Assembly: GCA_045535455.1 (NCBI GenBank)
Contig: JAZSLQ010000125.1
Coordinates: 1,894 to 65,893, forward strand
DNA length: 64,000 bases
Reading direction: 5' to 3'
Source of the DNA: Kiritimatiellia bacterium
GTDB lineage: Bacteria; Verrucomicrobiota; Kiritimatiellia; RFP12; UBA1067
The translations under genes and the position numbers were made by a program. This document shows, piece after piece, positions 5,039-58,912 of this stretch. Each line of letters opens with the position of its first letter. Positions within the stretch are counted from its first letter, which is position 1. Below the pieces are notes generated by a model. It saw only the letters and a list, made by a program, of their open reading frames with translations, was not told the origin of the DNA and did not search any database.

Positions 5039-5647
5039 ATGAAAGATGCGCTTGAGGAGCTCTATTCGCGAAACCCATGTCTTGAACAATGCAGGGATGC
5101 CGTCGCTAACGCTTTTAACGTGCTTCTCTTTGCATTTCGCTCGGGTGGCAAGGTGCTTGTGTGCGGCAACGGCGGAAGTGCGGCGGACGCAGAGCATATC
5201 TGCGGCGAACTGCTGAAGAAGTTCAAGAGGCACCGTGCAGTCCCTGCGGAAATATCGTCGAAACTCAGGCCCGAACTCGCAGACAGGCTGGAAGGGGCGC
5301 TGCCGGCGATTTCGCTTGTTTCGATGAGCGGGATTCTCACCGCGTTTGCCAACGACGTTTCGTGGAAGACTGCCTTTGCGCAGCAGGTGCTTGCACTTGC
5401 GAAGCCGGATGACGTGCTGATCACGCTTTCTACGAGCGGCAACAGTGCCAACTGCATTGCCGCTGCGGAGGTGATGAAGGCCGTCGGAGGAAAGACGATA
5501 TCCTTTACGGGTAAGAACGCGTCGTGTCTCTCGGAAATATGCGACATCACCATTCGCGTCCCGGAAACGGAAACCTACAAAGTACAGGAACTGCACCTGC
5601 CAGTATATCATGCGCTATGCGCGGCAATCGAGGAGGAGATGTTTTAA
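5039..5647 (+). CDS. SIS-domain sugar-phosphate isomerase (GmhA phosphoheptose isomerase or DiaA-like)
   Basis: VLVCGNGGSAADAEHICGEL is the GmhA SIS signature. Protein is 202 aa. Confidence 0.8.
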   Translation: MKDALEELYSRNPCLEQCRDAVANAFNVLLFAFRSGGKVLVCGNGGSAADAEHICGELLKKFKRHRAVPAEISSKLRPELADRLEGALPAISLVSMSGILTAFANDVSWKTAFAQQVLALAKPDDVLITLSTSGNSANCIAAAEVMKAVGGKTISFTGKNASCLSEICDITIRVPETETYKVQELHLPVYHALCAAIEEEMF

Positions 5648-5680
5648 AGTGTAAAGTGTAAAATGTAAAGTGTAAAATTG
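5646..5680 (+). repeat. heptanucleotide tandem array, five copies of AAAGTGT/AAAATGT
   Basis: aaagtgt aaagtgt aaaatgt aaagtgt aaaattg begins inside the gmhA-like stop codon and ends 17 nt before the ROK start. Confidence 0.9.
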
Positions 5681-8250: not shown

Positions 8251-8634
8251 GTACGGGGATTGTTGCGCCAATCACGTCGACTACATCCGGCACTTGGGAA
8301 TTGGTAGGAATCATATGGGGACAAGTCCCCGCCGCTGACGTTCTGGGCTGGGTGCGCCGAAAGTCGGACCTTTCGCATAATCCGCATTTTCTGCGATGGT
8401 GTGTGCTCACATAATTTGCATAATGCAATATAGGTGAGCGAAGTCAGGGAGGATGTTGTTTTTACATGTTGTCTTTGTTGTTTCCAATTCAACTTATAGG
8501 CAAGTCCTTGGATTCAACACGAAAGATGGTTGTGTCGTGGTTGGAGCGTGGTTGAGTCGGCCAATGTCTCGCGCTGATTTCTGTGCGCGTTCTCCAAAAT
8601 TCTGTAAAACTTTTTCGGAAAAAGTCGAAATGAT

Positions 8635-8680
8635 GCACCTTTACCTTGCGGCGGGAAAGAACCGCCAGAAAGGAAAGGTG
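8635..8680 (+). promoter_or_regulatory. 5'-leader stem-loop that sequesters the RBS, upstream of the toroid-protein gene
   Basis: CACCTTTACCTT at 8635-8646 can pair with the Shine-Dalgarno region AAAGGAAAGGTG at 8669-8680. An inner hairpin is formed by gcggcgg...ccgcc. Confidence 0.4.
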
Positions 8681-8684
8681 CAAC

Positions 8685-10346
8685 ATGAACGACGACAAAT
8701 ATACTGAAAAAGGATTCCTCCGTCGGCTTTTTGAGATGTTTCAAGGCCTCAGGATGCCTCGGGACACGCGCGAATACAAACTTGCGCGAATCGAGCTCCA
8801 GCGCCTCTCGGCGCCTCTTACGGCGATTGTCGTGCCGACTTTGTTCGTCATAGTGCTTTGTGTTGTGACGGCTATTTCGTCGCAAAAGACAGAATTGCCG
8901 CCCGTGCACATTGCAGATCCGATTGTGGATGATCCGCCACCCGTGGATCCGCCGGAGCCGACGCCTGAAGATCCTCCTACTCCGGAGCCGGTAGTTGAGT
9001 TTACCGTAGACGTTCCGACTCCTGCGCCTTTTACGCCGTTGCCGCCTACGCCTATCAATACATCTTCGACGGATCTCTCCGTGAAGCCCGCTTCTATTGA
9101 TGCCGTGATGAACATCAAATCTCCCGTGATGATGAAAACTATAAAGGTGAGCCGCACTCCGGGCACAATCGGCAGGGTGACAGGCGGCGGCGACAAGGGC
9201 GGTGGCGATCCGCGTACTGAGGCGACGGTGATGAAGGTTCTCTGGTGGCTCAAGGCGCACCAGAACACCGACGGCAGCTGGGGCAATGCAAACAAGGTTG
9301 CGAACACCGCCCTTGCCGTGCTTACCTACTTGGCTCACGGCGAATATCCGGGAAACCCTCTTTCGCCATACACGCGTGACTTCGGCCCGACTGTGCAATC
9401 TGCGCTTGACTATCTCATCGGCAGCATCTACGTCGGCAAAGACAACCTTCCTCACTTCCAGGGGACGGACGGCAACGAGTACAGCTTCCTCATCGGCACC
9501 TACGCGCTCTGTGAGGCGTTCGCCATGACGAAGAACCCCAACTGCAAGGAGGCGGCGACGACGTGCCTCTATCGCATCATCGAAAACCAGTCCTCGACGG
9601 GCGGCTGGGACTACAAGCTCAACAAGAACTCGACGCGTGACGACCTCTCCTTCGCGGGCTGGGCGATCCAGGCGCTCAAGGCAGGCAAGATGGCCGGGCT
9701 TCACCACGAGGGGATGCAGACTGCGATCAACAAGGCGGTGAACTGCCTTAAAAAGCGCGGCTACTCCAAGTCCGGCGGCTTCACATACACGCCGACGGCG
9801 AACAACAACGGCGGAAACACCGGTCTTGCCGGTGTCGGCACGCTTGCATTGCAGTTCCTTGGCCGCGGCACCGAAGCGGAGGCGCTGAACGCGCTCGACG
9901 TGATGCGTGACTGGATGCCAGCGTTCGAGTCGGAAAAACTTTCCGCAAAGAGGCCCGGCGGCAGCCCGCAGTACTACTGCTACTATGCGACGCAGTGCAA
10001 GTACCAGGCGGGCATGAAGCCAGGCGCGACGAAGCAAGATGTCGATTCGTGGGTGAAATGGAACCTCGAGATGAGAAAGCTCTACCCGGCCTCGATCATC
10101 GACCTCCCCGAAAAGGTTGCGGACGTCAAAGGGAAGGAGCATGCGCAGGGCTATTACCAGAACACCGACGCGCATTCGTCACGTCCCTACATGGACACGT
10201 GCCTCGCGGCGCTCCAGCTGATGGTATATTACCGCTATCTCCCGACGACGTCCACGAAGGCGGGCGAGAGCGACGCGGGCGAAAGCGCCGACATTAATGG
10301 CTTCGATAGCTCCAAGGACGTTCAGGTCGTCGTCTCCAATTTGTAA
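8685..10346 (+). CDS. membrane-anchored prenyltransferase/squalene-oxidase-repeat (alpha/alpha toroid) protein
   Basis: A TM segment (LTAIVVPTLFVIVLCVV) and a Pro-rich linker precede KVLWWLKAHQNTDGSWG. Further QxxDGxW-type toroid repeats follow. Confidence 0.65.
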   Translation: MNDDKYTEKGFLRRLFEMFQGLRMPRDTREYKLARIELQRLSAPLTAIVVPTLFVIVLCVVTAISSQKTELPPVHIADPIVDDPPPVDPPEPTPEDPPTPEPVVEFTVDVPTPAPFTPLPPTPINTSSTDLSVKPASIDAVMNIKSPVMMKTIKVSRTPGTIGRVTGGGDKGGGDPRTEATVMKVLWWLKAHQNTDGSWGNANKVANTALAVLTYLAHGEYPGNPLSPYTRDFGPTVQSALDYLIGSIYVGKDNLPHFQGTDGNEYSFLIGTYALCEAFAMTKNPNCKEAATTCLYRIIENQSSTGGWDYKLNKNSTRDDLSFAGWAIQALKAGKMAGLHHEGMQTAINKAVNCLKKRGYSKSGGFTYTPTANNNGGNTGLAGVGTLALQFLGRGTEAEALNALDVMRDWMPAFESEKLSAKRPGGSPQYYCYYATQCKYQAGMKPGATKQDVDSWVKWNLEMRKLYPASIIDLPEKVADVKGKEHAQGYYQNTDAHSSRPYMDTCLAALQLMVYYRYLPTTSTKAGESDAGESADINGFDSSKDVQVVVSNL

Positions 10347-11190: not shown

Positions 11191-12443
11191 ACGCCGCGTT
11201 TCTCAATGAGTGGCAGCTCTATCGGCGCGGCGCACAGCTTCCGCCAATCGTCGGGCTCGAGCCGAAGACCGATTCGGAGTTCGACGCCGATGTAGCCGTC
11301 GGGGAGATAAGGATATTCGCCGACACGAACCGCCCGCTTGTCGCGCTCGTCGTCGAAGACCGCCGTCTTTCTGGATGGCGCATTGTTCCCGTCTCACCGT
11401 TTTGCGCGCCCGCTTCCACTCGTGAGTTGATGGTGGGCGAGCGCGTCTTCCAGCTTTGGAACGCGACTGTCGTCTCGCGTCGCTTTGCGTCGCGCAGCTG
11501 GAGAGTTGATGCGATTTCCGATTCCGACCTTGCTGATATCCGCGGCGCAATTGCCGCGGCGAATCCTGGGCGCATCACTGCAGGCGACGGCGTGCAGGCG
11601 AAGTACGAGCGCGAGTTTCTCGTCGGAGAGGGAACGCTCGTGCCGTTTGCAGCGCCTCGCGCGGCGGATTTGCCGCGCTTTGCGTGGATGCAAGTCTCGT
11701 TCAAGATCGCGGCGTCGCTCGCGGTGTGTCTTTCGGCGTGGTATGTCCTGATGATGGACTCAGGCCGACAGATCGTCCGCAACTGGCGCGAGGGCTTCCA
11801 TGCCGTCGACATCGCGCAGGAAGACGCGGCCATCGAACTTGTCGACGCGCGCGAGGTGCGCGAGGCGCCGACGGAGATCGCGGAAGTAAATATAGACTTT
11901 ACGCCGCCCTCGGTAACATGGCACGGTCCTGCGCCAGAAGTCTTCCGCCTCGCGAAATTCGCGGACGTGAAGGGACCGAAGGTGCCGGAGAGTATCAAGA
12001 AGTTCACGCTCGACCGCGACAGGTTCGTTTCACCGATTTCCGCTCCGATGGATGTCGTGTTCCTGTCGGGTGGCGAAGGGAAGTCTCGCGCCTCTGCGCA
12101 GAGCGGTGAGCTCCGATATGCGGCTGCAATCGCGCCGCTCGCGGGGCCTCCGAAGGTGACGTGCCGGCTTGTGGACGACACGCGGAGCGGGCTCTGCGTC
12201 GACAAGATACTGCGGATTGAAGGAGAGGTCGCGGAAGGAGCGAAGATCACAGTGATGTTCGACGACGATGTCATCGAGGGATATGGCAGACTGTCCAGCA
12301 TTGCCTCCAACTGCAAGGTCTGGATCGATTACGAACTTATGGCATTCTCCGGCAAGACGATTTCCCCCGAGGATGTTTTCGTCACGCTCATCTGGCCAGC
12401 GAAGGATGGCGACGAGCGCACGCCCGTTCCAGTCGGCGAGTGA
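11187..12443 (+). CDS. hypothetical single-pass membrane protein with an anti-sigma-like topology
   Basis: Overlaps the upstream gene by 4 nt. A central TM helix (FKIAASLAVCLSAWYVLMM) separates domains of roughly 170 aa and 230 aa. Confidence 0.35.
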   Translation: MNAAFLNEWQLYRRGAQLPPIVGLEPKTDSEFDADVAVGEIRIFADTNRPLVALVVEDRRLSGWRIVPVSPFCAPASTRELMVGERVFQLWNATVVSRRFASRSWRVDAISDSDLADIRGAIAAANPGRITAGDGVQAKYEREFLVGEGTLVPFAAPRAADLPRFAWMQVSFKIAASLAVCLSAWYVLMMDSGRQIVRNWREGFHAVDIAQEDAAIELVDAREVREAPTEIAEVNIDFTPPSVTWHGPAPEVFRLAKFADVKGPKVPESIKKFTLDRDRFVSPISAPMDVVFLSGGEGKSRASAQSGELRYAAAIAPLAGPPKVTCRLVDDTRSGLCVDKILRIEGEVAEGAKITVMFDDDVIEGYGRLSSIASNCKVWIDYELMAFSGKTISPEDVFVTLIWPAKDGDERTPVPVGE

Positions 12444-12464
12444 AAATTATTGTCCGTTTGCCAT

Positions 12465-12493
12465 TGACGCGGCGACGGCAAAATTGATAGAAT
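12465..12493 (+). promoter_or_regulatory. sigma-70 promoter TTGACG-17-TAGAAT
   Basis: -35 at 12465-12470, -10 at 12488-12493. Drives a 5'UTR of about 65 nt for the RRM gene. Confidence 0.55.
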
Positions 12494-12562
12494 TTGCGGT
12501 GTCGAAGCGGCGAGGGCGCGTGCTTTCCCGGCGAGACGGAACACAAGAAGGAAAGAATCAAG

Positions 12563-12940
12563 ATGGAAATCTATGTTGGTAACCTCGCATACGCGACCAC
12601 CGACGATGGACTCAAGGCGGCGTTCGCGCAATTCGGCGAAGTTACCGCCGTTCGTGTCGTGACCGATCGCATGACCGGTCGCAGCAAGGGATTCGGCTTC
12701 GTCACGATGCCCGACGCCACCCAGGCGCAGGCCGCGATCGACGCCCTCAACGGACACGAACTCGACGGACGCACGGTCCGCGTCAATGAGTCGCAGCCCA
12801 AGCCTCGCGAAGAGCGTCGTGGCGGCTTCGGCGGCGGGCGCGGCGGTTATGGCGGGCGCGGCGGCTATGGTGATCGTGGCGGCTACGGCGACCGTGGCGG
12901 CTATGGCGATCGCGGCCCTCGTCGCGAGACTCGCTGGTAA
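12563..12940 (+). CDS. RRM-type RNA-binding protein with a Gly-rich (GGYGDRG) C-terminal tail
   Basis: MEIYVGNLAYATTDDGLKAAFAQFGEV...KGFGFVTM contains the RNP2 and RNP1 motifs. Followed by five GGYG(D)RG repeats. Confidence 0.85.
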   Translation: MEIYVGNLAYATTDDGLKAAFAQFGEVTAVRVVTDRMTGRSKGFGFVTMPDATQAQAAIDALNGHELDGRTVRVNESQPKPREERRGGFGGGRGGYGGRGGYGDRGGYGDRGGYGDRGPRRETRW

Positions 12941-12965
12941 TCGATGGTTCGTCGATTAAAACGGG

Positions 12966-12997
12966 AAGCGCGGCCCATTCGCCGCGCTTTTTGTTTT
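12966..12997 (+). terminator. rho-independent terminator
   Basis: AAGCGCGGC ccattc GCCGCGCTT forms a 9-bp stem, followed by TTTTTGTTTT. Confidence 0.7.
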
Positions 12998-13052
12998 CAG
13001 ATCGGTAGGGGCGTGTTTCCAACGCGCCCGCTGTTAAAAGACTAAAAATGCA

Positions 13053-13661
13053 GTGGCAGTTTCGCTTGAGATAGAGGAGTCGGTCGGCGATCCAGTTATG
13101 GGAATCGACGAGGCGGGGCGCGGCCCTCTTGCTGGCGGCGTATATGCCGCAGCCGTGTCTGTTCCACTTGCGCTTGCGGAGCAGCTGCTCGTCGGCGCGT
13201 GGAGTGAGATAAATGACTCGAAGAAGCTGACGGAGAAAAAGCGCGAGCGCCTTGCGGCGGTCATCAAGTCGACGGACGGCTGCAGGTGGGCCATTGCGAG
13301 CGCGAGCCCGAAGGAGATCGACGAGCTAAATATTTTGAACGCAACGCACCTCGCAATGCGAAGGGCGGCGGACGAAGTCGGCGCGGAGCATGTTCTCGTC
13401 GACGGGCTTCCCGTGAAGACGCTGCCGCACGCAGTGAACGTCGTGAAGGGCGACGCCAAGTCTCTCCTCATCGCGGCGGCGTCGATTCTCGCGAAGACGG
13501 CGCGAGACGCCGACTGCCTTCGCCTCGAGGCGCTTTACCCAGGCTACGGCTTTGCAAAGCACAAGGGCTATCCGACGAAGGACCATATAGAAGCGCTTTC
13601 GCGGCTCGGCCCGTGCCCCGAACACCGCAGGAGCTTCGGCCCCGTGGCCAATGTGATTTGA
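13053..13661 (+). CDS. rnhB: ribonuclease HII
   Basis: GIDEAGRGPLAGGV and DSKKLT are RNase HII motifs. Confidence 0.9.
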   Translation: MAVSLEIEESVGDPVMGIDEAGRGPLAGGVYAAAVSVPLALAEQLLVGAWSEINDSKKLTEKKRERLAAVIKSTDGCRWAIASASPKEIDELNILNATHLAMRRAADEVGAEHVLVDGLPVKTLPHAVNVVKGDAKSLLIAAASILAKTARDADCLRLEALYPGYGFAKHKGYPTKDHIEALSRLGPCPEHRRSFGPVANVI

Positions 13662-13667
13662 TATAAT
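13659..13667 (+). promoter_or_regulatory. extended -10 promoter TGATATAAT
   Basis: Located upstream of the thioredoxin-like gene whose ATG is at 13693. Confidence 0.4.
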
Positions 13668-13692
13668 ACCATTCAACACGAAAGGAACATCA

Positions 13693-14514
13693 ATGAAGAA
13701 TACGATTCCGATGCTGTGCGCCGCGCTCTTTGCGCTGGCTGCGTTCGCCAAGACCTCAACGCCCGAAGGATGGTTCGACGACTATGACGCCGCCCTCAAG
13801 AAGGCCGCCGCCGAAAACAAGCACGTCGTCATCGACTTCTCGGGGAGCGACTGGTGCGGATGGTGCAAGCGCCTCGACAAGGAAGTGTTTGCGACCGACG
13901 AGTTCCGCAAGGGCGCCGCGGAGAAATACGTTCTCCTTATGGTTGACTCTCCGAGCGACAAGTCGCTTCTTTCCGAGAAGGCGAAGAAGCAGAATCCGGA
14001 ACTCGTCAAGAAGTTCGGAGTCGAGGGCTTTCCGACTGTCGTAGTGCTAGATTCGAAGGGCGAGGAAGTGATGAGGACCGGCTATCAGGCGGGAGGTCCT
14101 GAGAAGTACCTCAAGATGCTCGACGAGGAGATACGCTTCGCCCCGGAGATAAAGAAGTACATCAAGCCGATCGAAGACGTCTTGAACCGCCACGACGAGC
14201 AGATGAGGAAAGACTCCGACGCGGCGATGGAGAAGGTCAAGGCGAAGTTCCCGAGGCCCGACAAGAAGATGTCGAAGTCCGAACGGCAGAAGTACCAGCA
14301 GGATGCCATGGCCTACGCCCAGAAGATCATGTTCGAGGAAGTGTACCCTAAGTATGTGCCGCTAATTGAGAAGTGCTTTGCCGAGGCGAAGGCGATGAAG
14401 GTTCCTGCGGCCCTGGAAGAGCGCAAGAAGGAACTTATCGAAGGAGAGGAAAAACGGTTCGACATGTTGCGCAAGGCGCTCAAGGAGCACGCAGAGAAGA
14501 AGAGCGAGAAGTAG
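13693..14514 (+). CDS. secreted thioredoxin-fold protein with a CxxC motif
   Basis: A signal peptide is present. DFSGSDWCGWCKRLDKEV carries the WCGWC active site. The C-terminal half is helical and Lys/Glu-rich. Confidence 0.65.
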   Translation: MKNTIPMLCAALFALAAFAKTSTPEGWFDDYDAALKKAAAENKHVVIDFSGSDWCGWCKRLDKEVFATDEFRKGAAEKYVLLMVDSPSDKSLLSEKAKKQNPELVKKFGVEGFPTVVVLDSKGEEVMRTGYQAGGPEKYLKMLDEEIRFAPEIKKYIKPIEDVLNRHDEQMRKDSDAAMEKVKAKFPRPDKKMSKSERQKYQQDAMAYAQKIMFEEVYPKYVPLIEKCFAEAKAMKVPAALEERKKELIEGEEKRFDMLRKALKEHAEKKSEK

Positions 14515-14518
14515 CGCC

Positions 14519-15264
<746 letters not shown>

Positions 15265-15268
<4 letters not shown>

Positions 15269-39139: not shown

Positions 39140-39191
39140 CGAGTAAGCTACCGCAATGGTCCACGAACGATCGCTCGGCCAATGTTGAATT

Positions 39192-39200
39192 TGCTATAAT
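39192..39200 (+). promoter_or_regulatory. extended -10 promoter TGCTATAAT upstream of rmuC
   Basis: GGGAGG Shine-Dalgarno at 39225-39230 and the ATG at 39239. Confidence 0.4.
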
Positions 39201-39238
39201 ATAGCCATGAAAATCAAGGTTGCTATGGGAGGTGGACA

Positions 39239-46351: not shown

Positions 46352-46420
46352 GGGGTGAAAACGCGGATAGTATACCATACTCTGCCGATGCTTTCAAGTA
46401 GCCGCCGACACCGAATTATA

Positions 46421-46429
46421 TGATATAAT
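46421..46429 (+). promoter_or_regulatory. extended -10 promoter TGATATAAT, near-leaderless
   Basis: Ends 9 nt before the ATG at 46439. Confidence 0.4.
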
Positions 46430-46438
46430 ATTCCAACT

Positions 46439-47599
46439 ATGAAGATTACCGATGACATTCTCTATGTCGGCGTCAACGACCACGACGTCGATCTCTTCGA
46501 AGGCCAGTTCGAGGTTCCGCTTGGCATGGCCTACAATTCCTACGTCGTCAAGGGCGGGAAGGTCGCCGTGATGGACACAGTCGATGCGCGCTTTGGCGAC
46601 GAGTGGCTGAAGAACGTCGCGGCCGCGACCGACAAGGTCGACTATCTCGTCGTCCACCACATGGAGCCCGACCACTCCTCGAACATCGCGCGCTTTGCAG
46701 AGGCGTACCCGAATGCGAAGATCGTCTCTTCCATGCAGGCGTTCGCAATCATGAAGAACTACTTCGGCACCGATTTCGCCGACCGTCGCGTCGTCGTCAA
46801 GGAAGGCGACACGCTCGACCTCGGCGGGCACACGCTTGCGTTCGTCGGCGCTCCGATGGTGCACTGGCCCGAAGTCGTAGTCAGCTACGACACGGCGACG
46901 AAGACGCTTTTCTCCGCCGACGGCTTCGGCAAGTTCGGCGCGAACGACAAGGTCGATCCCGAGGGGTGGGACTGCGAGGCGCGTCGCTACTACTTCGGCA
47001 TCGTCGGCAAGTTCGGCATGCAGGTGCAGGCGCTTCTCAAGAAGGCGGCGACGCTCGACATCGCGCGCATCTGCCCGCTTCACGGTCCTGTGCTCCAGAC
47101 GCCAGAGGAAATTGCCCATGTCGTCAAGCAGTACCAGACCTGGAGCTCCTATGGTGTCGAGACCGAGGGTGTTTGCGTCGCCTACACTTCTGTATATGGC
47201 CACACTAAGGCCGTCGTCGAGAAGTTCTGCGAGATCCTGAAGGCGAAGGGCTGCCCCAAGGTCGCGTGCGCCGATCTCGCTCGCGACGACATGTACGAGA
47301 CGATCGAGGATGGCTTCCGCTATGGACGGCTCGTTCTCGCGACTACGACTTACAACACCGGCGTCTTCCCGAAGATGGAGGAGTACATCCGTCATCTCCT
47401 TCGGCGCAACTACCAGAACCGCAAGGTCGGTTTCATCGAGAACGGCTCGTGGGGCCCGATGGCCGCGAAGGGCATGAAGGACCTTCTCGCCGCCGCGAAG
47501 GGGCTCTCGTTCTGCGAGGCGACCGTCACGGTGAAGGGCGCGATGACGGACGACACCGTCGCGCAGCTCGAGAAGCTTGCCGACGAAATACTGAAGTAG
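46439..47599 (+). CDS. FprA-family A-type flavoprotein (flavodiiron protein: metallo-beta-lactamase plus flavodoxin domains)
   Basis: HHMEPDHSSN di-iron ligand motif. The C-terminal flavodoxin-like block is CVAYTSVYGHTKAVV. Confidence 0.85.
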   Translation: MKITDDILYVGVNDHDVDLFEGQFEVPLGMAYNSYVVKGGKVAVMDTVDARFGDEWLKNVAAATDKVDYLVVHHMEPDHSSNIARFAEAYPNAKIVSSMQAFAIMKNYFGTDFADRRVVVKEGDTLDLGGHTLAFVGAPMVHWPEVVVSYDTATKTLFSADGFGKFGANDKVDPEGWDCEARRYYFGIVGKFGMQVQALLKKAATLDIARICPLHGPVLQTPEEIAHVVKQYQTWSSYGVETEGVCVAYTSVYGHTKAVVEKFCEILKAKGCPKVACADLARDDMYETIEDGFRYGRLVLATTTYNTGVFPKMEEYIRHLLRRNYQNRKVGFIENGSWGPMAAKGMKDLLAAAKGLSFCEATVTVKGAMTDDTVAQLEKLADEILK

Positions 47600-51350: not shown

Positions 51351-52484
51351 CTATGCTTCCCGTTTCCCTTCCTTTGCCGACTGGCGGCGGTATTCGCGCA
51401 TGGTCATGCCGGTTCGCTTCAGGAAGAACCGCTTTGCGTATCCGTCCGATTCGTATCCGCTGCGCTCCACCACCATCGCGATGGGAAGTGTGCTGCTCGA
51501 CAGGAGTTCGCGCATTTTCTGTAGACGTATTTCATGGATTTCGTCTAGGATTGAACGGCCCGTTTCCTTTCTGAACCGGCTTGTCGCAAGCGCGCGCGAG
51601 CAGTTCATTTCGGCGGCGATGGCGTCAATGGAAAGTCCTGGCTCGCAGGCGTGGCGCCTGATGAACTCGCGCGCACGGCGCACACGTGCGCTGACTCCCG
51701 GAGTTGTGTCCGTGGAGCCGCGACGCACGATGCGCAGCGGGCCATAGTATTCGGTGCGTACGCTTGTGCCGTTGTCGATTTCCTCCGCGAGCATCTGGGC
51801 CATGCGCCATCCGGCGCCCTCGAAGTCGGGTTCGACGCTCGTGATGCCGGGTTTCACGGCCTCGCAGTACGCCTCGTCGTTGTCGATTCCGACGATGCGC
51901 ACTTCATCGGGCACTGAAAGCCCCACCTTTGTCGCTGCGTTATATGCCTCCATGGCGCAATAGTCGTTCGCACCGAGTATGCCACACGGTTTAGGCAAAT
52001 CCCTTAGTGTCTCTTCGAGAGACGCGAGCGCCAACGTGACAAGCGTCTGCCCGGCAGCGGCAGTATCGGACTTGAAGCGTTTAAAGCGCGCCTTGTCCCA
52101 GTGAATGCCCTTGCCTGTGCCGAGGTAGGCGTAGGATTTGCATTTGCACCTCAGGAGGTCCTTGACGGCCAATGCCGCGGAAGCGGCGGAATCGTGCAGA
52201 AGGCACGGATGTTCCTTCGACGGCATCTCGGGGTTCTGGTCGAGGTATATGGTCGGGATTCCCCTGAAGACGTTGTCGGGCGCGCTCGCCGTGCGCATTG
52301 CGCGATCCACAAGACAGCCGATGGGAGCCCATGTTTTCAGTGCTCGGCGGATATCCGAGGTGGTCGCGAATCGCTCCACGACCTGCACGAACCAGTCGCG
52401 CTCCTGTGCAAAGCGGTGGACGCCCGAGAGCTTCTGTAGCCAGCTCTTACGTGTTGTGGACTGGAAGAAAAGTACTGTTTTCAT
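51351..52484 (-). CDS. AraC/XylR-family transcriptional regulator with an N-terminal periplasmic-binding-protein-like sugar-sensing domain
   Basis: The C-terminal AraC HTH pair (GLSIDAIAAEMNCSRALATSRFRKETG...MREYR) and an N-terminal LacI/PBP-like fold. Divergent from the DUF5107/TPR gene. Confidence 0.8.
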   Translation of the reverse strand: MKTVLFFQSTTRKSWLQKLSGVHRFAQERDWFVQVVERFATTSDIRRALKTWAPIGCLVDRAMRTASAPDNVFRGIPTIYLDQNPEMPSKEHPCLLHDSAASAALAVKDLLRCKCKSYAYLGTGKGIHWDKARFKRFKSDTAAAGQTLVTLALASLEETLRDLPKPCGILGANDYCAMEAYNAATKVGLSVPDEVRIVGIDNDEAYCEAVKPGITSVEPDFEGAGWRMAQMLAEEIDNGTSVRTEYYGPLRIVRRGSTDTTPGVSARVRRAREFIRRHACEPGLSIDAIAAEMNCSRALATSRFRKETGRSILDEIHEIRLQKMRELLSSSTLPIAMVVERSGYESDGYAKRFFLKRTGMTMREYRRQSAKEGKREA

Positions 52485-52508
52485 TGTGAGTATAGCATAT
52501 CATAATCC

Positions 52509-52538
52509 TGTCCGATTGACTATGTTTTATTTGTCCTA
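52509..52538 (+). promoter_or_regulatory. conserved 30-bp cis-element TGTCCGATTGACTATGTTTTATTTGTCCTA, a candidate AraC/XylR operator
   Basis: A near-identical copy is at 58569-58598. It contains TGTCC half-sites 22 bp apart and sits about 30 bp upstream of the -10 element. Confidence 0.5.
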
Positions 52539-52564
52539 TGGGATAACACATCGAGCAGGCGTCT

Positions 52565-52584: not shown

Positions 52585-55500
52585 ATGAAAGCGAAGAACA
52601 GTCTGATAATTGCGATCCTTGCATCATCCGCTTTGGCATCCGCCTACGCTGGCGAGGTGTTGATGAACGAAGACACGATCGTCCTTCCGACGTATGCGCC
52701 CGGCGGATACGACAAGACGCCGCTTTTCTATACCGGGCGCGTCTACCAGGGCGCGCAGGGGCGCGTCTACCCGTATCCGATGCAGGACGTCCTGCACGAC
52801 GAGAAGTTCGACGAGACGTACAAGTACCTGACGCTCGAGAACGACTGGCTCCAGATGGGGCTTCTACCCGAGCACGGCGGGCACCTCCTCAACTTCACCG
52901 ACAAGGCGACCGGATTCGAGACGTTCTACCGCCAGCATGTCATAAAGCCCGCGCTCATCGGAATGCTCGGCGCGTGGATATCCGGCGGCGTCGAATGGAA
53001 CTTCCCGCACCACCACCGCGCGACGACGGCGATGCCCATCGACTGGCGAGCGGTCGAGAACGCGGACGGATCGAAGACGATCTGGATCGGCGAGACAGAG
53101 CTCAGGCGCCGCCTCAAGTGGACGATAGGTCTTTCGCTCCTCCCCGACCGCGCCGTGTTGAAAGCGGAGAACGTCTTCATGAACCGCCAGCCGTGGATCG
53201 AGTCGATGATCTACTGGGCAAACGTGTCCGTCCACTGTGGCGACGACTACCAGATTCTCTTTCCGCCTTCGATGCACCTCGGCTTCGACCACCACAAGAA
53301 CTACTGGACGAGCTTCCCGATCGGACCGAGGAAGGAGGAAGTCGAGCTCCTTCCGTCGCAACGCTCGAAATACGCGAACGACATCTCCGGCACGATGGAC
53401 CTCAGCTGGTGGAAGAACTTCACCATTGAATCGCGCTCCATCTTCGGCATGGATCCCGACAACTCCTTCATGGCCGGATACGACCACAAGAAACAGTGCG
53501 GTACGGCGCACGTCTCGAACAGGCACATCACCGTCGGCAAGAAGTTCTTCCTCTGGGGCAACTTCCCCGAGGCGCACGTGTGGGACAAGGTGCTTACGGA
53601 CAATGACGGACCGTATCTCGAGCTGATGGTCGGATGCTGGTCCGACAACCAGCCCGACTATTCGTGGATAGCGCCCTACGAGACGCGCAAGGTCGAGCAG
53701 TTCTGGTTCCCGGTGAAGGGGATTGGCGGCATCAAGAACGTGACGATTGACGGTGCGGTGAACGTCGACCGCCTTTCGGATGACAAGATGCTAGTCGGTT
53801 TCCACTCAACGCGCGTGCTAAAGGGGTGTACGATTACTCTCTTCAAGGATCGCGAGGCGGTCTTCGCCGAGAAGGGCGTCGCCATTGATCCGAATAGACC
53901 ATGGTGCAAGACTGTCGCCGTCGAGAATGGTGTTGCCGATCAGCGTTACACGGCTACAATCGCCGATGCTTCAGGCAAGGTATTCCTCTCCTACACGCCC
54001 GTTCCGCCGCAGGGAGACGTGGAACTGCCGCCGAAGGTGGAGAATCCGAAAGAGCCGAAGGAATACACGAGCGCCGAGCTCGCCTACGAGGTCGGTCTTC
54101 GCCTCGATCAGTTCCAGAACGGGCTCATCGATCCCGAGCCATACTACAAGAGGGCGCTCGAGATTGACCCAGACTATTCGAAGCCGAATCTTGCGATGGG
54201 CGTACGGCTGGCGAAGAACGGAAGCTACGTCGAGGCGAAGCCGTATCTAGAGAGGGCAGTTGCGCGCGCAACGCAGAACCACACGCGTGCGCTCGACGCC
54301 GCGCCGGAGTACTACCTCGCGCTCGTGGAGCGATATCTCGGCAACCTGAAGCGAGCGGAAGACCTCTTCTGGCGCTGCACCTGGCGGCTTACGCACAAGA
54401 AGGAGTCGTATGTCGAACTTGCCAGAATTGCCGCGCTCAAGGGCGACTGGACTGAGGCGCTTGCGCGAATTGACGATGCGCTTACGCTTGGGTCTGACGA
54501 GGCAAAGCTCTGGACGATGAAGGGGATATTCCTTCGGAAGTTGAAAGTTGAAAGTGAAAAGTGTAAAGTTGGGGATTCATACGGCAACTCTAAACTTTCA
54601 ACTTTAAACTTTAAACTTGCGCTCGACAGAGCGCAACAGTGCGATCCGCTGGAATATTGGGCGGTCGTGGAGCGCGACGGTTTTGCCGCGGCCGAGAAGA
54701 ATCGCGGGCTCAAGGCGCAGCAGCTTCTGGAGTGCATCAGTGACTACTGGGGAATCGGCTGCTATGACGAGGTGATCGCGCTCTGCGACGCCGCGCTTGC
54801 GAAAGCCGCCACAGAGAAGCCCTACGCTACCGAGGGCGCGCTTCCGCTCAAGGACACCATCGCCGCGTGCGACAGCTACAAGAACGCGCTCTTCGGCTAC
54901 TTCAAAGGAGCGGCGATTGAAAAGTTGAAAGTTGAAAGTGAAAAGTGTAAAGTTGAAAGGAGTGTCGACAGCAACTTTAAACTTTCCACTTTAAACTTTA
55001 AACTCGCGCAAGCGGCGTTTGCCGCCGCTGCCGCGATGCCGACGGACTACTGCTTCCCGAACCGGCTCGAAGAGGAAGAGGTTCTGAAGATCGCAGCGGT
55101 CGCCGCGCCCGAACTCGCGAACACATGGTACTACCTCGGATGCTGCGAGTGGAACCATGACCGCAAGGACGCGGGACTCTCCGACTGGAAGAAGTGCGTA
55201 GAGCTGATGCCGGAGCACGCGCTCGCTTTGCGCTGCATCGGCTTCGCTCTTTCGCATCCCGGGACGTACTTCACGAACACCGGTATTCCGTCCGGCGTGC
55301 CGAGCAAGGAAGCATACGAATACTACCTCAAGTCGCTTGCCGCCGATCCCGGCAACTTCCGCACGCTCGACGAGGCGGGCAAGCTCGCGGAGAAGCTGAA
55401 GCTCCCGGCGGCGGAACGCCTTGCGCTGATGGAGAAATATCGCGCGACGGTCGACAAGTACGATCCGTGCATTCTGCGATATGCCTACACCTTGAACGCA

Positions 55501-56127
55501 GTCGGGCGTTTCGCCGAGGCGCACGAGATACTCACAACGCGCCGCTTCCACGTATGGGAAGGAGCGGACGGACTTCTCGCGCCATTCGTCGAGTCCTGCA
55601 TCGGCCTCGGGCTCAAGGCTATGGAGGACGGCAGGGCGCTCTCGACGAGAGCGCCGGACGGCGGTTTCATCGAAACCGCCCTACCGGATGCGGCTGCCGG
55701 GAAATACCGTCTCGCTTTGGCGTATTTCGAGGAGTCGACGACTTATCCCGAAAACCTCCAGGCGGGGCGTCCGGGCGACGCAGGCACCGAGCCGAAGAGC
55801 CGCTACTTCATGGCTCAGTGCAAGAAGGCGCTGGGCGACGAGGCGGGATACCGCGCGGAGCTCGAAAACTCCCTCAAGGGATGGATCCATGCGGGCGAGA
55901 TGGACTACTGGCGCGTCAAGGCCCTGCGCGAACTCGGACGAGACGCCGAGACCGCTCCTCTCATCGCGGAAATGAAACAGGCGATAAAGGAGCTTGAGAC
56001 GCCGCAGCCCGTCGTCATCAACGCATACGCGAAGTTCGCGGGCGACAATTCTGCGATGGAGCGCGCGGCCAAGGCCCGCGAAAAGGCCGGCTTCCTCCGT
56101 TCGCTCCTCTCCGAGATCGACAGGTAG
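52585..56127 (+). CDS. large exported protein with a DUF5107-like N-terminal domain and C-terminal TPR repeats, carrying two in-frame hairpin-repeat insertions
   Basis: Signal peptide MKAKNSLIIAILASSALASAYA. The conserved N-terminal 500 aa or so is followed by TPR-like helical repeats. The low-complexity KLKVESEKCKV...KLSTLNFKL segments appear twice. Confidence 0.65.
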   Translation: MKAKNSLIIAILASSALASAYAGEVLMNEDTIVLPTYAPGGYDKTPLFYTGRVYQGAQGRVYPYPMQDVLHDEKFDETYKYLTLENDWLQMGLLPEHGGHLLNFTDKATGFETFYRQHVIKPALIGMLGAWISGGVEWNFPHHHRATTAMPIDWRAVENADGSKTIWIGETELRRRLKWTIGLSLLPDRAVLKAENVFMNRQPWIESMIYWANVSVHCGDDYQILFPPSMHLGFDHHKNYWTSFPIGPRKEEVELLPSQRSKYANDISGTMDLSWWKNFTIESRSIFGMDPDNSFMAGYDHKKQCGTAHVSNRHITVGKKFFLWGNFPEAHVWDKVLTDNDGPYLELMVGCWSDNQPDYSWIAPYETRKVEQFWFPVKGIGGIKNVTIDGAVNVDRLSDDKMLVGFHSTRVLKGCTITLFKDREAVFAEKGVAIDPNRPWCKTVAVENGVADQRYTATIADASGKVFLSYTPVPPQGDVELPPKVENPKEPKEYTSAELAYEVGLRLDQFQNGLIDPEPYYKRALEIDPDYSKPNLAMGVRLAKNGSYVEAKPYLERAVARATQNHTRALDAAPEYYLALVERYLGNLKRAEDLFWRCTWRLTHKKESYVELARIAALKGDWTEALARIDDALTLGSDEAKLWTMKGIFLRKLKVESEKCKVGDSYGNSKLSTLNFKLALDRAQQCDPLEYWAVVERDGFAAAEKNRGLKAQQLLECISDYWGIGCYDEVIALCDAALAKAATEKPYATEGALPLKDTIAACDSYKNALFGYFKGAAIEKLKVESEKCKVERSVDSNFKLSTLNFKLAQAAFAAAAAMPTDYCFPNRLEEEEVLKIAAVAAPELANTWYYLGCCEWNHDRKDAGLSDWKKCVELMPEHALALRCIGFALSHPGTYFTNTGIPSGVPSKEAYEYYLKSLAADPGNFRTLDEAGKLAEKLKLPAAERLALMEKYRATVDKYDPCILRYAYTLNAVGRFAEAHEILTTRRFHVWEGADGLLAPFVESCIGLGLKAMEDGRALSTRAPDGGFIETALPDAAAGKYRLALAYFEESTTYPENLQAGRPGDAGTEPKSRYFMAQCKKALGDEAGYRAELENSLKGWIHAGEMDYWRVKALRELGRDAETAPLIAEMKQAIKELETPQPVVINAYAKFAGDNSAMERAAKAREKAGFLRSLLSEIDR
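54541..54619 (+). repeat. inverted pair of heptamer arrays (GAAAGTT-type arm, 16-nt spacer, AACTTTM-type arm), a hairpin-forming element inside a CDS
   Basis: tgaaagt tgaaagt gaaaagt gtaaagt then the spacer, then aactcta aactttc aacttta aacttta aacttgc. Confidence 0.9.
54918..55007 (+). repeat. second inverted pair of heptamer arrays inside the same CDS
   Basis: Six forward units (tgaaaag ttgaaag ...) then a 13-nt spacer, then five reverse units (aacttta aactttc ...). Confidence 0.9.
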
Positions 56128-56339: not shown

Positions 56340-57785
56340 TTGGAGATAATTATGTTTGTGGGACGATTAGAAGAGCTTGATCTGCTAAAAGGACTTTGGA
56401 ATAAAGTCACAAAAACCTCGTTAGTGACGGTTAGAGGGCGAAGGCGCATTGGGAAATCGACTCTTGTTGCGCACTTTGCTGATGTCTCGAATGCACGATT
56501 TCTTAAGATTGAAGGGCTTTCGCCACGAACGGCCAAGTCGAACGCAGACCAGTTAAAGGGCTTTTATTCGCAGCTTCAGCTTCAAAGCGGAAAGACATAC
56601 GAAGTCGTTGACTGGCTTAAAGCGTTCAAGGACGTCGACGCAGAGATTGTTGACGGACAGCGGACGGTTCTTCTTTTGGACGAGATATCGTGGATGGCGT
56701 ATTACGATGCCTCTTTCCCGGGGCTTCTGAAGATTGCCTGGGATAATTTCTTTCACAAGCACCCCAATCTGATTTTGTTTCTGTGCGGGAGCGTCTCAAG
56801 TTGGATAAGGGAGAACATACTTGAGGACGGAGGTTTTCTTGGAAGGCCCTCTGCCGACATTGTGCTGAAGGAGCTTTCCGCAAGGGACTGTCTGTCTTTC
56901 TGGGGTGGTGCGGCGAAGCGCCTTTCGTCTCGTGAACTCTTCGACATGCTTTCCGTCTGCGGTGGGGTGCCGCGATATCTTGAGGAGATAGATCCGTCGC
57001 TGACCGTCGATGAATCGCTGCGTAGGTCGTGCTTTACGCCGCAGGGATACCTTTTCAGGGACTTCGACCTGATGTTCGACGAACTGTACGACAAAAGTTC
57101 GGCTGAAAGAAAGTCCGTGCTTAACGCGCTGGCGAAGAAACCGATGACTGTCAGCGAGGTTGCCGCAGCGACAGGGCGTAGTCGTAACGGACATCTTGTG
57201 GAACTTCTGAAGGATCTTGTCCAGGCAGGATTCCTCGCTCAGGAGCGCGGAATCAATCCACAAACTGGGGAGTTGCGCCAGGAAACGCGGTATCGGATAT
57301 GCGACAACTACGTGCGGTTCTATCTTCATGCCATCTTGCCGCGAAGGGCAATGATAGAGGACGGCACATATCGCTTTGAGTCATTGGAGCGACTGCCCGG
57401 ATGGGAGACGATATTGGGATTCCAGTTTGAGAATCTTGTGCTCGGTTCGTTGCCAGCGCTTGTCGCGAGGCTTCATCTCGACAGGTCGAGAATCCTCTCG
57501 ATGGCCCCATACCGCAGAACCTCGGCCGACAAGGATCGCGGTTGCCAGATAGACTGCCTTATACAGACGCGGCGGTCGATGTATGTCGTCGAGATAAAGC
57601 GGAAGGCGAATATAGGAACGGAGATAATTGACGAAGTCGAAAATAAGATTGACCGACTTGGATATTCGGGCAAAACGTCCGTAAGGCCGGTTCTTGTCTA
57701 TGACGGCAACCTTTCTCCGATGGTTGAGGAAGACGGATATTTCGCGGCGATCATTCCCGCTTCAGAATTGTTCGGACTTGACTAA
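56340..57785 (+). CDS. AAA+ ATP-binding protein (archaeal-ATPase/DUF234-type) in a lower-GC islet
   Basis: Walker A GRRRIGKST and Walker B LLLDEISW. Protein is 481 aa. The local base composition is visibly AT-richer. Confidence 0.7.
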   Translation: MEIIMFVGRLEELDLLKGLWNKVTKTSLVTVRGRRRIGKSTLVAHFADVSNARFLKIEGLSPRTAKSNADQLKGFYSQLQLQSGKTYEVVDWLKAFKDVDAEIVDGQRTVLLLDEISWMAYYDASFPGLLKIAWDNFFHKHPNLILFLCGSVSSWIRENILEDGGFLGRPSADIVLKELSARDCLSFWGGAAKRLSSRELFDMLSVCGGVPRYLEEIDPSLTVDESLRRSCFTPQGYLFRDFDLMFDELYDKSSAERKSVLNALAKKPMTVSEVAAATGRSRNGHLVELLKDLVQAGFLAQERGINPQTGELRQETRYRICDNYVRFYLHAILPRRAMIEDGTYRFESLERLPGWETILGFQFENLVLGSLPALVARLHLDRSRILSMAPYRRTSADKDRGCQIDCLIQTRRSMYVVEIKRKANIGTEIIDEVENKIDRLGYSGKTSVRPVLVYDGNLSPMVEEDGYFAAIIPASELFGLD

Positions 57786-57810
57786 CTGCCGGGAGGACCT
57801 ATCTGCGTTG

Positions 57811-58503
57811 ATGAAAATACGAAGTGGCAGAACAATTCCATGGCGGGTTGGCTGGGAGTCAATAAAGGCGAACTGGCTGCCGATGGTCGTCTTGTGGCTG
57901 CTTGCAGCGGCGTTGGTTGCGGGCTATACATACGTGCCCTGCGTTCGGGCGGCGCTGCAGCCCGTCTTCGATTTCCAGACCGGCGGAGGGTGGAAGGCGG
58001 CGGTCCTTAACAGAATCGTCTTCTGCGGACTTCTCCCCGGAGCGTTTCTGCTGACGATAAGATCGATACGACCGCCGCGTCCTCTGCTTACGGTGCTCGC
58101 CAACTGCGTGTGGATGGGGGCGTGGGGCGTTGCGAGCAATGCGTTCTTCACGCTCCAGACGCAGATGTTCGGCTCGGGGCACGACATCGCGACTCTTGTC
58201 GCAAAGGTGCTTGTCGACAAGTGCGTGTGGTCTGCGCTCCTGTGCGTTCCGCTCAACTCCGTGTTCTTCTTCTGGGAGGGGCGAGACTTCTCCCTCGCGA
58301 GGTGCCGTGCGGAATGGCCGCGCAGCTATCTGCGGCAGATATACCTCCCGATTCTTCTCGCCGATTTCTCCGTCTGGATTCCGGTGCAGTTCGCAGTGTA
58401 CATCTTTCCTCTGCCGCTCCAGATACAGCTTGTCGGCTTCGCCGGCGCATTCTGGTCCCTCGTCGGTCTCTCGTCTGGCATCCGCCTCGCACGTAGTGTG
58501 TGA
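57811..58503 (+). CDS. hypothetical integral membrane protein with about six TM segments
   Basis: The start at the internal ATG follows the ATPase stop. The protein is hydrophobic throughout. Confidence 0.45.
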   Translation: MKIRSGRTIPWRVGWESIKANWLPMVVLWLLAAALVAGYTYVPCVRAALQPVFDFQTGGGWKAAVLNRIVFCGLLPGAFLLTIRSIRPPRPLLTVLANCVWMGAWGVASNAFFTLQTQMFGSGHDIATLVAKVLVDKCVWSALLCVPLNSVFFFWEGRDFSLARCRAEWPRSYLRQIYLPILLADFSVWIPVQFAVYIFPLPLQIQLVGFAGAFWSLVGLSSGIRLARSV

Positions 58504-58568: not shown

Positions 58569-58598
58569 TGTCCGATAGGATATGTTTTACTTGTCCTA
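58569..58598 (+). promoter_or_regulatory. second copy of the conserved 30-bp cis-element (TGTCCGATAGGATATGTTTTACTTGTCCTA)
   Basis: 26 of 30 nt are identical to 52509-52538. Located 25 bp upstream of a -10 element. Confidence 0.5.
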
Positions 58599-58622
58599 AC
58601 GAATAGCTTTGGGGGGCTGGAA

Positions 58623-58633
58623 TGTGGTAAGAT
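58623..58633 (+). promoter_or_regulatory. extended -10-like element TGTGGTAAGAT
   Basis: Located upstream of the small ORF at 58674. Confidence 0.3.
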
Positions 58634-58673
58634 ATTGTGCGTCAGGCATGAAAATAAGAAATGTCCAAATAAC

Positions 58674-58895
58674 ATGAAAAAACTGATGATGATTGGTGGT
58701 GCGGTTGTCGCGATTCTCTCGATTGAGGCGAAGGCTTCGACGGTCGCATACTGGCCGCTTACGCAAGCGAACGGAGTGCGAACGACCTCATCCACCGTCT
58801 TCGCCAATGAGGGCGACAACTCGGCGATGGAGCGTGCGGCCAAGGCGCGCGAAAAGGCAGGCTTCCTCCGCACCCTCCTCGCAGAACTCGAGTAA
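58674..58895 (+). CDS. small secreted protein (74 aa). Its N-terminus resembles the LamG protein leader and its C-terminus resembles the DUF5107/TPR protein C-terminus. Possibly a remnant.
   Basis: ASTVAYWP is shared with the 60441-62096 protein. GDNSAMERAAKAREKAGFLR(T/S)LL is shared with residues 1300-1329 of the 52585-56127 protein, at about 85 percent nucleotide identity. Confidence 0.45.
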   Translation: MKKLMMIGGAVVAILSIEAKASTVAYWPLTQANGVRTTSSTVFANEGDNSAMERAAKAREKAGFLRTLLAELE

Positions 58896-58912
58896 CATAA
58901 AGGACAACGCGC

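Follow-up and report, generated by a model that had tools for sequence, protein, structure and literature searches.

The 64,000 nucleotides (nt) analysed here (hereafter the window), from contig JAZSLQ010000125.1 of a rumen bacterium belonging to the Kiritimatiellae, include a gene encoding a secreted protein with a DUF5107 domain and tetratricopeptide repeats (TPR). Two copies of one palindromic element lie within this gene, at 54538-54618 and 54922-55005. Both are insertions relative to orthologous sites that are empty in related bacteria, and both consist of arms made of imperfect 7-nt units. The best explanation, to which a probability of about 0.68 can be given, is that they are copies of a small dispersed palindromic repeat with heptamer-array arms, which the host gene tolerates and whose translation lengthens a helical hairpin of the TPR fold.

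The element within the DUF5107/TPR gene

In each copy, a left arm of 34 nt, whose sequence is AAGTTGAAAGTTGAAAGTGAAAAGTGTAAAGTTG in both cases, is separated by a short spacer from a right arm of the same length (Table 1). The arm units are imperfect heptamers of the types AAGTTGA and AACTTTM, and Tandem Repeats Finder detects period-7 arrays of 4.6-5.6 units in 4/4 arms, i.e. beyond the three units from which a repeat is counted as a heptameric tandem array. The arms are 84-88% complementary, with about 28-29 pairs per copy, and the two copies are the longest local inverted repeats of the window. Their ends are AAGTTG...CAACTT, with neither a GTAG nor a CGTC tag. The GC content of the element is 32%, compared to about 59% in the window. 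With up to 2 mismatches allowed, the 12-mer AACTTTAAACTT occurs 23 times for 1.7 expected, a number that is reached in 0/100 shuffles.

The elements encode residues 652-678 (copy 1) and 780-807 (copy 2) of the host protein, in the frame of the coding sequence (CDS), as KLKVESEKCKV...KLSTLNFKL. Within them, this frame contains 0 stops and the other two sense frames contain 2-6. A translational bypass or an intron-like segment was considered and rejected, as an insert that is in frame and stop-free needs no removal. The first-pass annotation of the window had described two in-frame copies of an inverted heptamer array, each with a forward arm, a 13-16-nt spacer and a reverse arm able to form a stem of about 28 bp, together with the above translation; this description is confirmed throughout. 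The expected folding is also found: on the sense strand, the folding energies of copies 1 and 2 are -25 and -31 kcal/mol (z-scores -2.4 and -3.2), and the opposite strand folds slightly better (z-scores -4.2 and -5.3).

Such hairpins might be selected as structures of the mRNA or of the DNA, for example to pause translation between folding units, to block RNases, to provide an internal promoter or to serve as a site of recombination, and an RNA-structure element within an mRNA was one of the two readings offered by the first-pass annotation. Besides the folding, which is stronger than that of shuffled sequences, two observations point in this direction. Unrelated hairpins are found at the same positions in other strains, so that structure is kept while sequence differs, and a weak sigma-70-like match is present in both left arms (TTGAAA-17-TAAAGT, 9/12, at 54541-54569 and 54925-54953; 2 matches versus 0.2 expected from shuffles), which makes internal sense promoters possible. 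However, many close orthologs carry no hairpin at the site, and similar repeats also occur in the dihydropteroate synthase gene folP and in intergenic DNA. No compensatory change is seen in eight aligned copies, in which the variation is all one-sided and five mismatches are fixed, a count that, given so little variation among eight copies, says no more than that it lends no support to a selected structure. A comparison with Rfam 15 yields no family at the gathering score and only sub-threshold hairpin models of miRNA precursors (20-27 bits versus 70-135 required). An intrinsic terminator is rejected, with 0 terminator-like sites in 54300-55300 on either strand and no T run. The RNA-structure reading thus receives no support, and selection for a nucleic-acid structure in general is very improbable.

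Empty and filled sites among orthologs

The host protein has 5020 relatives at E <= 0.001. The top 120 are 76-100% identical to it and contain Pfam PF17128 (DUF5107) and TPR families, and the taxa named among them are Kiritimatiellae. They were aligned with the window protein (121 sequences), and about 90 loci (designated by L numbers) entered the comparison; 80 genomic loci were mainly from rumen and gut metagenome-assembled genomes. The protein database contains intact open reading frames (ORFs) only, and the sample is therefore biased towards in-frame alleles. The protein begins with a signal peptide; its database version, P0001, starts 21 codons upstream of the ATG at 52585.

The two elements occupy what the alignment of the 120 orthologs reveals as the two most variable parts of the protein: site 1, defined as the stretch between KGIFLRKL and CDPLEYW, and site 2, between FGYFKGAA and MPTDYCFP. 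Empty alleles make up 17/121 sequences at site 1 and 67/121 at site 2, so that these segments are not a universal part of the protein. The empty alleles, LRKLGRDAGWCFDRAL for site 1 and GAALEKKGDKAAAKAAYEAANA for site 2, read as plain TPR turns, and filled sites are up to 61 residues longer. The remaining sequences carry unrelated inserts, at least 10 at site 1 and at least 6 at site 2. According to the alignment, the inserts are located exactly at the turn that joins helices A and B of a TPR unit. Some alleles are single-armed (such as site 1 of L003), composite or nested.

Hairpins are a general feature of the filled sites. Of the 36 distinct sequences found at sites 1 and 2 whose excess length is 8 residues or more, 26 fold strongly (z <= -2), and nearly all inserts with at least 15 extra residues do so, while z ranges from about -1.9 to +0.9 at empty sites. 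The density of strong hairpins in this gene is 2.2x that of the remainder of the 1.27 Mb of loci (p = 0.003). In this remainder, about half of them are also spanned by long ORFs. An ungapped hairpin census misses bulged hairpins, so that its densities are lower bounds.

Sites 1 and 2 belong to a set of seven indel hot spots, all at helix-helix or beta turns, the other five being near residues 421, 585, 697, 874 and 1017. The last of these contains the third insert of the host gene, a GC-rich double hairpin (Table 1) that encodes most of residues 1017-1039 (RALSTRAPDGGFIETALPDAAAG; the peptide is also given as RALSTRAPDGGFIETALP). It has the form GGCAGGG...CCCTACC, is GTAG-tagged, ends in CCCTACC and resembles repetitive extragenic palindromic (REP) sequences. 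No insert is present at this hot spot in 114/121 sequences. Six contigs end at or beside hot spots, as would be expected of repeats or of sites that vary between strains.

Families of inserts and relationships between copies

The elements of the window define family A (arm units GAAAGTT / AACTTTM). The DNA of sites 1 and 2 across the loci reveals further families, namely B (AGTTCGA / CCAACTC), C (GGAGGAGT / CCCACTC), D (TGTTGCCAA / TTGGCAACA), E (CATGTAGAACATG), the GC-rich GTAG-tagged type F, and others with various arm units. Within a genome, sites 1 and 2 tend to be filled by the same family (A,A 4; C,C 4; S,S 7; B,B 3). A GC-rich element of L010 is a clean insertion of 54 nt.

Further copies of the element exist. 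Family A is present in five other independent assemblies (L001, L095, L105, L106 and L107), at site 1, at site 2 or at both, and L105 has in addition a single-arm array at a third hot spot, that of residue 874. The six assemblies together hold ten copies, eight of which were aligned and display a mean column identity of 92%, spacer included. Site 1 of L107 is identical to copy 1 of the window. An assembly artefact is therefore excluded, the element being present in six independent assemblies, and the copies of the window are related by copying rather than being separate inventions. Taken with the empty orthologous sites and the hairpin potential, these copies lend support to the other reading of the first-pass annotation, a miniature inverted-repeat element tolerated in a coding sequence; the tests proposed there for its refutation are passed.

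The sequence of the arms bears the mark of the reading frame. Since 7 and 3 have no common factor, perfect arrays of (AACTTTA)n or (AAGTTGA)n would run into a stop at intervals of 21 nt, whichever the frame, but (AACTCTC)n is free of stops; the same arithmetic was pointed out by MacGregor for TAACTGA repeats (PMC4679880). Five arm mismatches are fixed in all eight aligned copies, and 3/5 of them (alignment columns 16, 22 and 68) avoid an in-frame TAA that would result from the regular base. The right arm of site 2 in L095 is shorter by exactly 21 nt, i.e. three units.

A unit of 7 nt, which is not a multiple of 3, in tandem tracts of 4-6 units could also act as a phase-variation switch, slippage shifting the frame and turning the gene on or off. 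The units are imperfect, though, the only length variant among the ten copies is the above change of 21 nt, which keeps the frame, and the same tracts are found in folP. There are no frameshifted alleles among the ten family-A copies, in a database biased towards intact ORFs. A switch of this kind is extremely improbable.

Predicted consequences for the protein

An AlphaFold2 model was built from 93 sequences (mean pLDDT confidence 65, 80-90 across most of the TPR part). In this model, the three inserts of the host gene extend the paired helices 640-660/669-686, 768-789/802-816 and 995-1019/1035-1050. The tips of the helices are of low confidence, with pLDDT < 50 at residues 660-669. The DNA hairpin is thus predicted to become an extension of a helical hairpin in the TPR fold.

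Recombination between alleles

The family of the insert can differ between proteins whose cores are 96-99% identical. Near-identical DUF5107 genes are mosaics (L100 versus L101; L102, L103 and L104): bins of 200 nt mostly contain 0-5 differing positions, and blocks with 20-60 differences are centred on the insert hot spots and their flanks. As the differences come in blocks at the hot spots, the alleles are shuffled by homologous recombination. From the alignments, the mosaics would indicate either that recombination is frequent or that old alleles are maintained at the hot spots. An estimate of insert turnover from the identity of the core proteins was rejected, because the DNA alignments show mosaic recombination: if alleles recombine, core identity gives no measure of how fast new insertions arise.

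Such diversity could result from a programmed or selected hypervariation of loops, in which the TPR turns would be cassette sites swapped by a dedicated, hairpin-specific recombination system or kept under diversifying selection, so as to vary exposed loops of the protein. The extreme allelic diversity at fixed codons next to nearly identical cores, the raised nucleotide divergence in the flanks of the hot spots, the signal peptide of the protein and the high density of strong hairpins in the gene all fit this proposal. However, ordinary homologous recombination of blocks explains the differences between near-identical genes, the inserts lie at helix-helix turns, off the ligand-binding face, and the repeats also occur in other genes, including cytoplasmic folP. 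Neither a recombinase nor an array of donor cassettes was seen near the gene when the neighbouring ORFs were read. The chance that the loops are hypervariable by programme or by selection is very slim.

Related arrays and hairpins outside the gene

The window contains 2 full copies of the element and 3 single-arm arrays in 64 kb (Table 1). Two of these arrays are in folP (CDS 14519-15268), which encodes a short dihydropteroate synthase of 249 amino acids. The first-pass annotation had stated that the right-arm unit of the element recurs in folP and encodes KLSTLNF in both genes. The unit family and its phase are indeed the same, but the folP unit, AACTCTC, yields KLSTLN and STLNF and never KLSTLNF in one piece. 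At the position of the first folP array, other folP orthologs carry alternative inserts, for example GRDACPQASAGVSEKRPY, including a GC-rich hairpin peptide. Nearly all of the 120 close folP orthologs retain the second array; it replaces a much longer stretch, and other orthologs have the tandem repeat SLGSVPK SLGSVP there. Both arrays appear to coincide in position with helix segments of E. coli FolP.

Table 1. Coordinates of the host gene, the elements and the related arrays in the window
Feature	Coordinates	Strand	Remarks
Host gene, secreted DUF5107 and TPR protein	52585-56127	+	1180 amino acids from the ATG at 52585; from the ORF list
Copy 1, left arm	54538-54571	+	4.9 imperfect heptamers of AAGTTGA type; translation KLKVESEKCKV
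Copy 1, spacer GGGATTCATACGG	54572-54584	+	13 nt; hairpin loop and tip of the predicted protein excursion
Copy 1, right arm	54585-54618	+	4.7 heptamers, AACTYTM; translation NSKLSTLNFKL
Copy 2, left arm	54922-54955	+	34/34 nt identical to copy 1 left arm
Copy 2, spacer AAAGGAGTGTCGACAG	54956-54971	+	16 nt; loop type also in L001, L095, L105 and L106
Copy 2, right arm CAACTTTAAACTTTCCACTTTAAACTTTAAACTC	54972-55005	+	88% complementary to copy 2 left arm
Third in-frame insert, of another family	55630-55685	+	GC-rich double hairpin, GGCAGGGCGCTCTCGACGAGAGCGCC and GGCGGTTTCATCGAAACCGCCCTACC
folP, first single-arm array, AACTCTC x5	14735-14769	+	In frame; encodes NSQLSTLNFQLS
folP, second single-arm array, AACTCTC x6	14928-14969	+	In frame; encodes SKLSTLNSQLSTF
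Intergenic single-arm array, TAAAGTG x4.6	5645-5676	+	Between a SIS-domain gene and a ROK-family gene

The first unit of the intergenic array contains the stop codon of the upstream gene. In L001, a (GTTGAAA)5 array fused to a GC-rich hairpin (GGTAGGGCGCG...) lies at 12905-12975, in frame within an alpha-galactosidase-like ORF (12296-14302), and the peptide is TLKVESSKLKVETVGRDHRARRSPG. More generally, period-7 arrays are found all over the Kiritimatiellae loci, with many kinds of unit and in ORFs as well as in spacers.

A search for the pattern of both arms retrieved 18 stretches from metagenomes: one is a DUF5107 ortholog, and the other 17 are intergenic, on contigs of 31-65% GC. These metagenome hairpins (L082-L099) have GAAAGTG/GAAAAGT arms, come from soil, rumen and other samples, and may reflect either horizontal spread or convergence. 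Two of them are on the same 333-kb rumen contig (L083 and L099), and the copy of L085 adjoins a tRNA gene. The intergenic rumen copy L089 has no tblastx match to the loci, and its assignment to Kiritimatiellae was dropped. Some low-GC contigs, such as L082 and L097, contain several different heptamer arrays within a few kb. In L081, a low-GC phage contig of IMG/VR, about 20 GAAAGTT/GAAAAGT/AGAAGTT heptamers (about 150 nt, at 950-1110) directly abut an ATG start codon.

At the protein level, a search with the insert peptide among 5.8 billion proteins gave 33 candidates sharing words with it, none of which scored, and a HMMER search with the 32-residue insert against 1.84 billion representatives gave one weak match (E = 9e-4). 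The first of these searches shows no more than that the peptide is rare in frame elsewhere.

Origin and spread of the element

From these data, the following scenario can be proposed for the tolerated and translated repeat. The DNA of the insert would be transcribed and read through, the peptide of the left arm lengthening helix A, the spacer forming the tip and the peptide of the right arm lengthening helix B. As the TPR fold would survive, the insert would be nearly neutral, and selection would only remove the copies that break the frame, which would account for the variant bases that avoid stops and for the length steps of 21 nt. The element would have no function of its own for the cell and would be selfish or passively tolerated DNA. 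New copies would derive from copies located elsewhere, either through transposition that depends on the hairpin or through events at stalled replication forks, namely template switching or gene conversion. The heptamer arms would then grow and shrink by replication slippage, and homologous recombination would shuffle the resulting alleles between strains.

Several observations weigh against this scenario. Neither copy is flanked by a target-site duplication (flanks CGGAAG/GCGCTC for copy 1 and GAAAAG/GCGCAA for copy 2), and no mobility machinery or insertion signature was found, transposases having been checked by reading the neighbouring ORFs. Many inserts take the place of 18-33 nt of the native sequence, which differs from what simple transposition predicts. 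The presence of at least 10 families at one codon position appears to exceed what a passive filter for permissive sites obviously predicts. The translation of the inserts is deduced from their frame, and the census of copies covers 64 kb of this genome. Finally, in-frame copies of family A seem to be almost confined to DUF5107 orthologs, so that spread by gene conversion within the gene stays a viable route.

This confinement is central to the main rival explanation, which holds that the element arose locally, without any mobile DNA: slippage from the AAG-rich codons of the native turns would have produced the arrays, strand switching would have produced their inverted copy, and intragenic gene conversion between turns, followed by recombination between strains, would have spread them. 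The left boundary resembles native sequence (GAG AAG AAG or CGG AAG CTC versus GAA AAG TTG AAA G), one family tends to fill both sites of a genome, target-site duplications are absent at both copies, slippage-prone heptameric repeats are documented in bacteria (PMC4692102), and mosaic recombination is evident. However, a local origin accounts poorly for an element of 32% GC inside a gene of 59% GC, for near-identical arrays in the unrelated glycosidase gene of L001, and for hairpins with the same arms in intergenic DNA of many taxa and in a phage contig. The GC-rich families that share these hot spots are GTAG-tagged, like dispersed REPs, and are clean insertions, for instance of 54 nt in L010. 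The independent invention of more than 10 hairpins at one codon also seems less likely than their import. A local origin is rather unlikely.

A more far-reaching possibility, which must be regarded as distinctly unlikely, is that the codons of the TPR turns are true cassette sites at which a hairpin-specific mechanism inserts or replaces tiny palindromes, resulting in programmed loop hypervariation; the elements would share a RAGT/ACTY heptamer core, from phages to bacteria of 31-65% GC. If this were true, they would be among the smallest mobile elements known.

Comparison with known systems

The closest analogues in behaviour appear to be the Rickettsia palindromic elements (RPEs). The passages of PMC10969869 that deal with them, citing Ogata 2000 and 2002, describe short palindromes located in frame in unrelated genes, belonging to several families, encoding a conserved peptide and compatible with the fold of the host protein; their transposition mechanism is described there as unknown. 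Like RPEs as presented in these passages, the element of the window is palindromic, lies in frame in a conserved ORF, is absent from some orthologs and encodes a peptide conserved between copies, and the inserts of its sites fall into several families. Its position, placed by the alignment at the turn between helices A and B of a TPR, would be compatible with the fold according to the AlphaFold2 prediction. By the same account, RPEs are about 100-150 bp long, have no tandem-heptamer arms and are peculiar to Rickettsia, whereas the element of the window is about 82 nt long and has arms made of 7-nt arrays. The use of the same codon positions by many unrelated families, found here, is not part of what these passages report for RPEs. 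RPE hosts are Rickettsiales and the host here is a rumen Kiritimatiellae bacterium; therefore, in this comparison of descriptions rather than of sequences, the element would be an analogue of RPEs and not a member.

The arms appear to belong to the known class of heptameric repeats, which are over-represented in bacteria, with inverted pairs (PMC4692102), and enter ORFs only where tolerated (PMC4679880). The heptameric simple sequence repeats of these studies (cyanobacterial STRR/GGGGAYT, GGGAATC of Xanthomonas, TAACTGA of Beggiatoaceae) consist, like the arrays described here, of 2 to >20 tandem 7-nt units that are dispersed in the genome, sometimes form inverted stem-loop pairs, vary in length between strains, occasionally overlap ORFs where this is tolerated and contain stops either in all frames or in none. 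They are, however, overwhelmingly intergenic, often G-rich or located beside start codons, whereas the copies of the window are hairpin pairs translated in the middle of a conserved protein. An intergenic position characterizes the array at 5645-5676 and the 17 metagenome stretches but neither the two elements nor the folP arrays.

REPs and REPINs, which are mobilized by RAYT transposases, are likewise short dispersed hairpins that are often clustered and belong to several families per genome (PMC3116915, PMC3733652). The GC-rich inserts of the hot spots, including that at 55630-55685, carry a GTAG-tagged GGTAGGG...CCCTACC form and, by their sequence, look like REP/REPIN elements. In contrast, REPs are extragenic by definition, while both heptamer-arm copies are inside a CDS and lack the GTAG or CGTC tag, and no RAYT was identified. 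The tandem repeats of Borgs (PMC9879509) also are fast-evolving nucleotide repeats within ORFs that keep the frame and add new peptide segments, but they are not palindromic: they are direct repeats whose unit lengths are divisible by three, they occur in extrachromosomal elements of archaea, and the regions that they form are proposed to be disordered. PARCELs, too, are protein-coding DNA of dyad symmetry that has spread between genomes, and the segments they encode are amphipathic; they differ in that a 25-residue motif is repeated in tandem over long arrays, in ORFs of their own, instead of forming single hairpins inserted into conserved enzymes. Lastly, the element has no target-site duplication, no terminal repeats distinct from its arms, the whole of it being an inverted repeat, and no partner transposase among the ORFs read near the gene; as a miniature inverted-repeat transposable element in the strict sense, it would be a putative one at most.

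No description of in-frame hairpin repeats in Kiritimatiellae was found in the open-access literature. The tolerated and translated repeat proposed here would extend in-frame palindromic DNA, so far treated as a peculiarity of Rickettsia, to an unrelated and free-living phylum of the gut and rumen, with the added features of 7-nt-repeat arms, several unrelated families and the recurrent use of the same codon positions. These inserts would make it possible to follow, as in an experiment set up by nature, how a folded protein acquires new peptide segments, and the clean series of filled and empty sites would help to find out how repeats of this small size move. They also call for caution in annotation and assembly, as the sites break metagenome contigs and inflate apparent protein diversity.

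Other features of the window and of related contigs

In related contigs, the neighbours of the DUF5107/TPR gene encode glycoside hydrolases, esterases and an AraC-type regulator. Downstream of the gene in the window, the region 58575-58900 resembles the remnant of a second DUF5107-like gene. Its AT-rich 5' region is similar to 52464-52551, a signal-peptide-like start is located near 58684, and 58811-58891 matches the final 81 nt of the DUF5107 CDS (56040-56120) with 85% identity. The 2.4 kb between the gene and this remnant have a lower GC content (0.525) and contain an ATPase-like ORF (56340-57785) and a membrane-protein ORF (57694-58503); this stretch may therefore be an insertion.

Two other strong hairpins of the window are located at 1421-1485 and 8630-8686; one is GC-rich with 31-nt arms that are 87% complementary, and the other has 25-nt arms with 80% complementarity. 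The other AT-rich islands are nearly all short and located upstream of genes, with GATATAATA-like motifs (for example at 2639-2695, 13648-13697, 39178-39226 and 46405-46461), and are probably promoters of this GC-rich genome.

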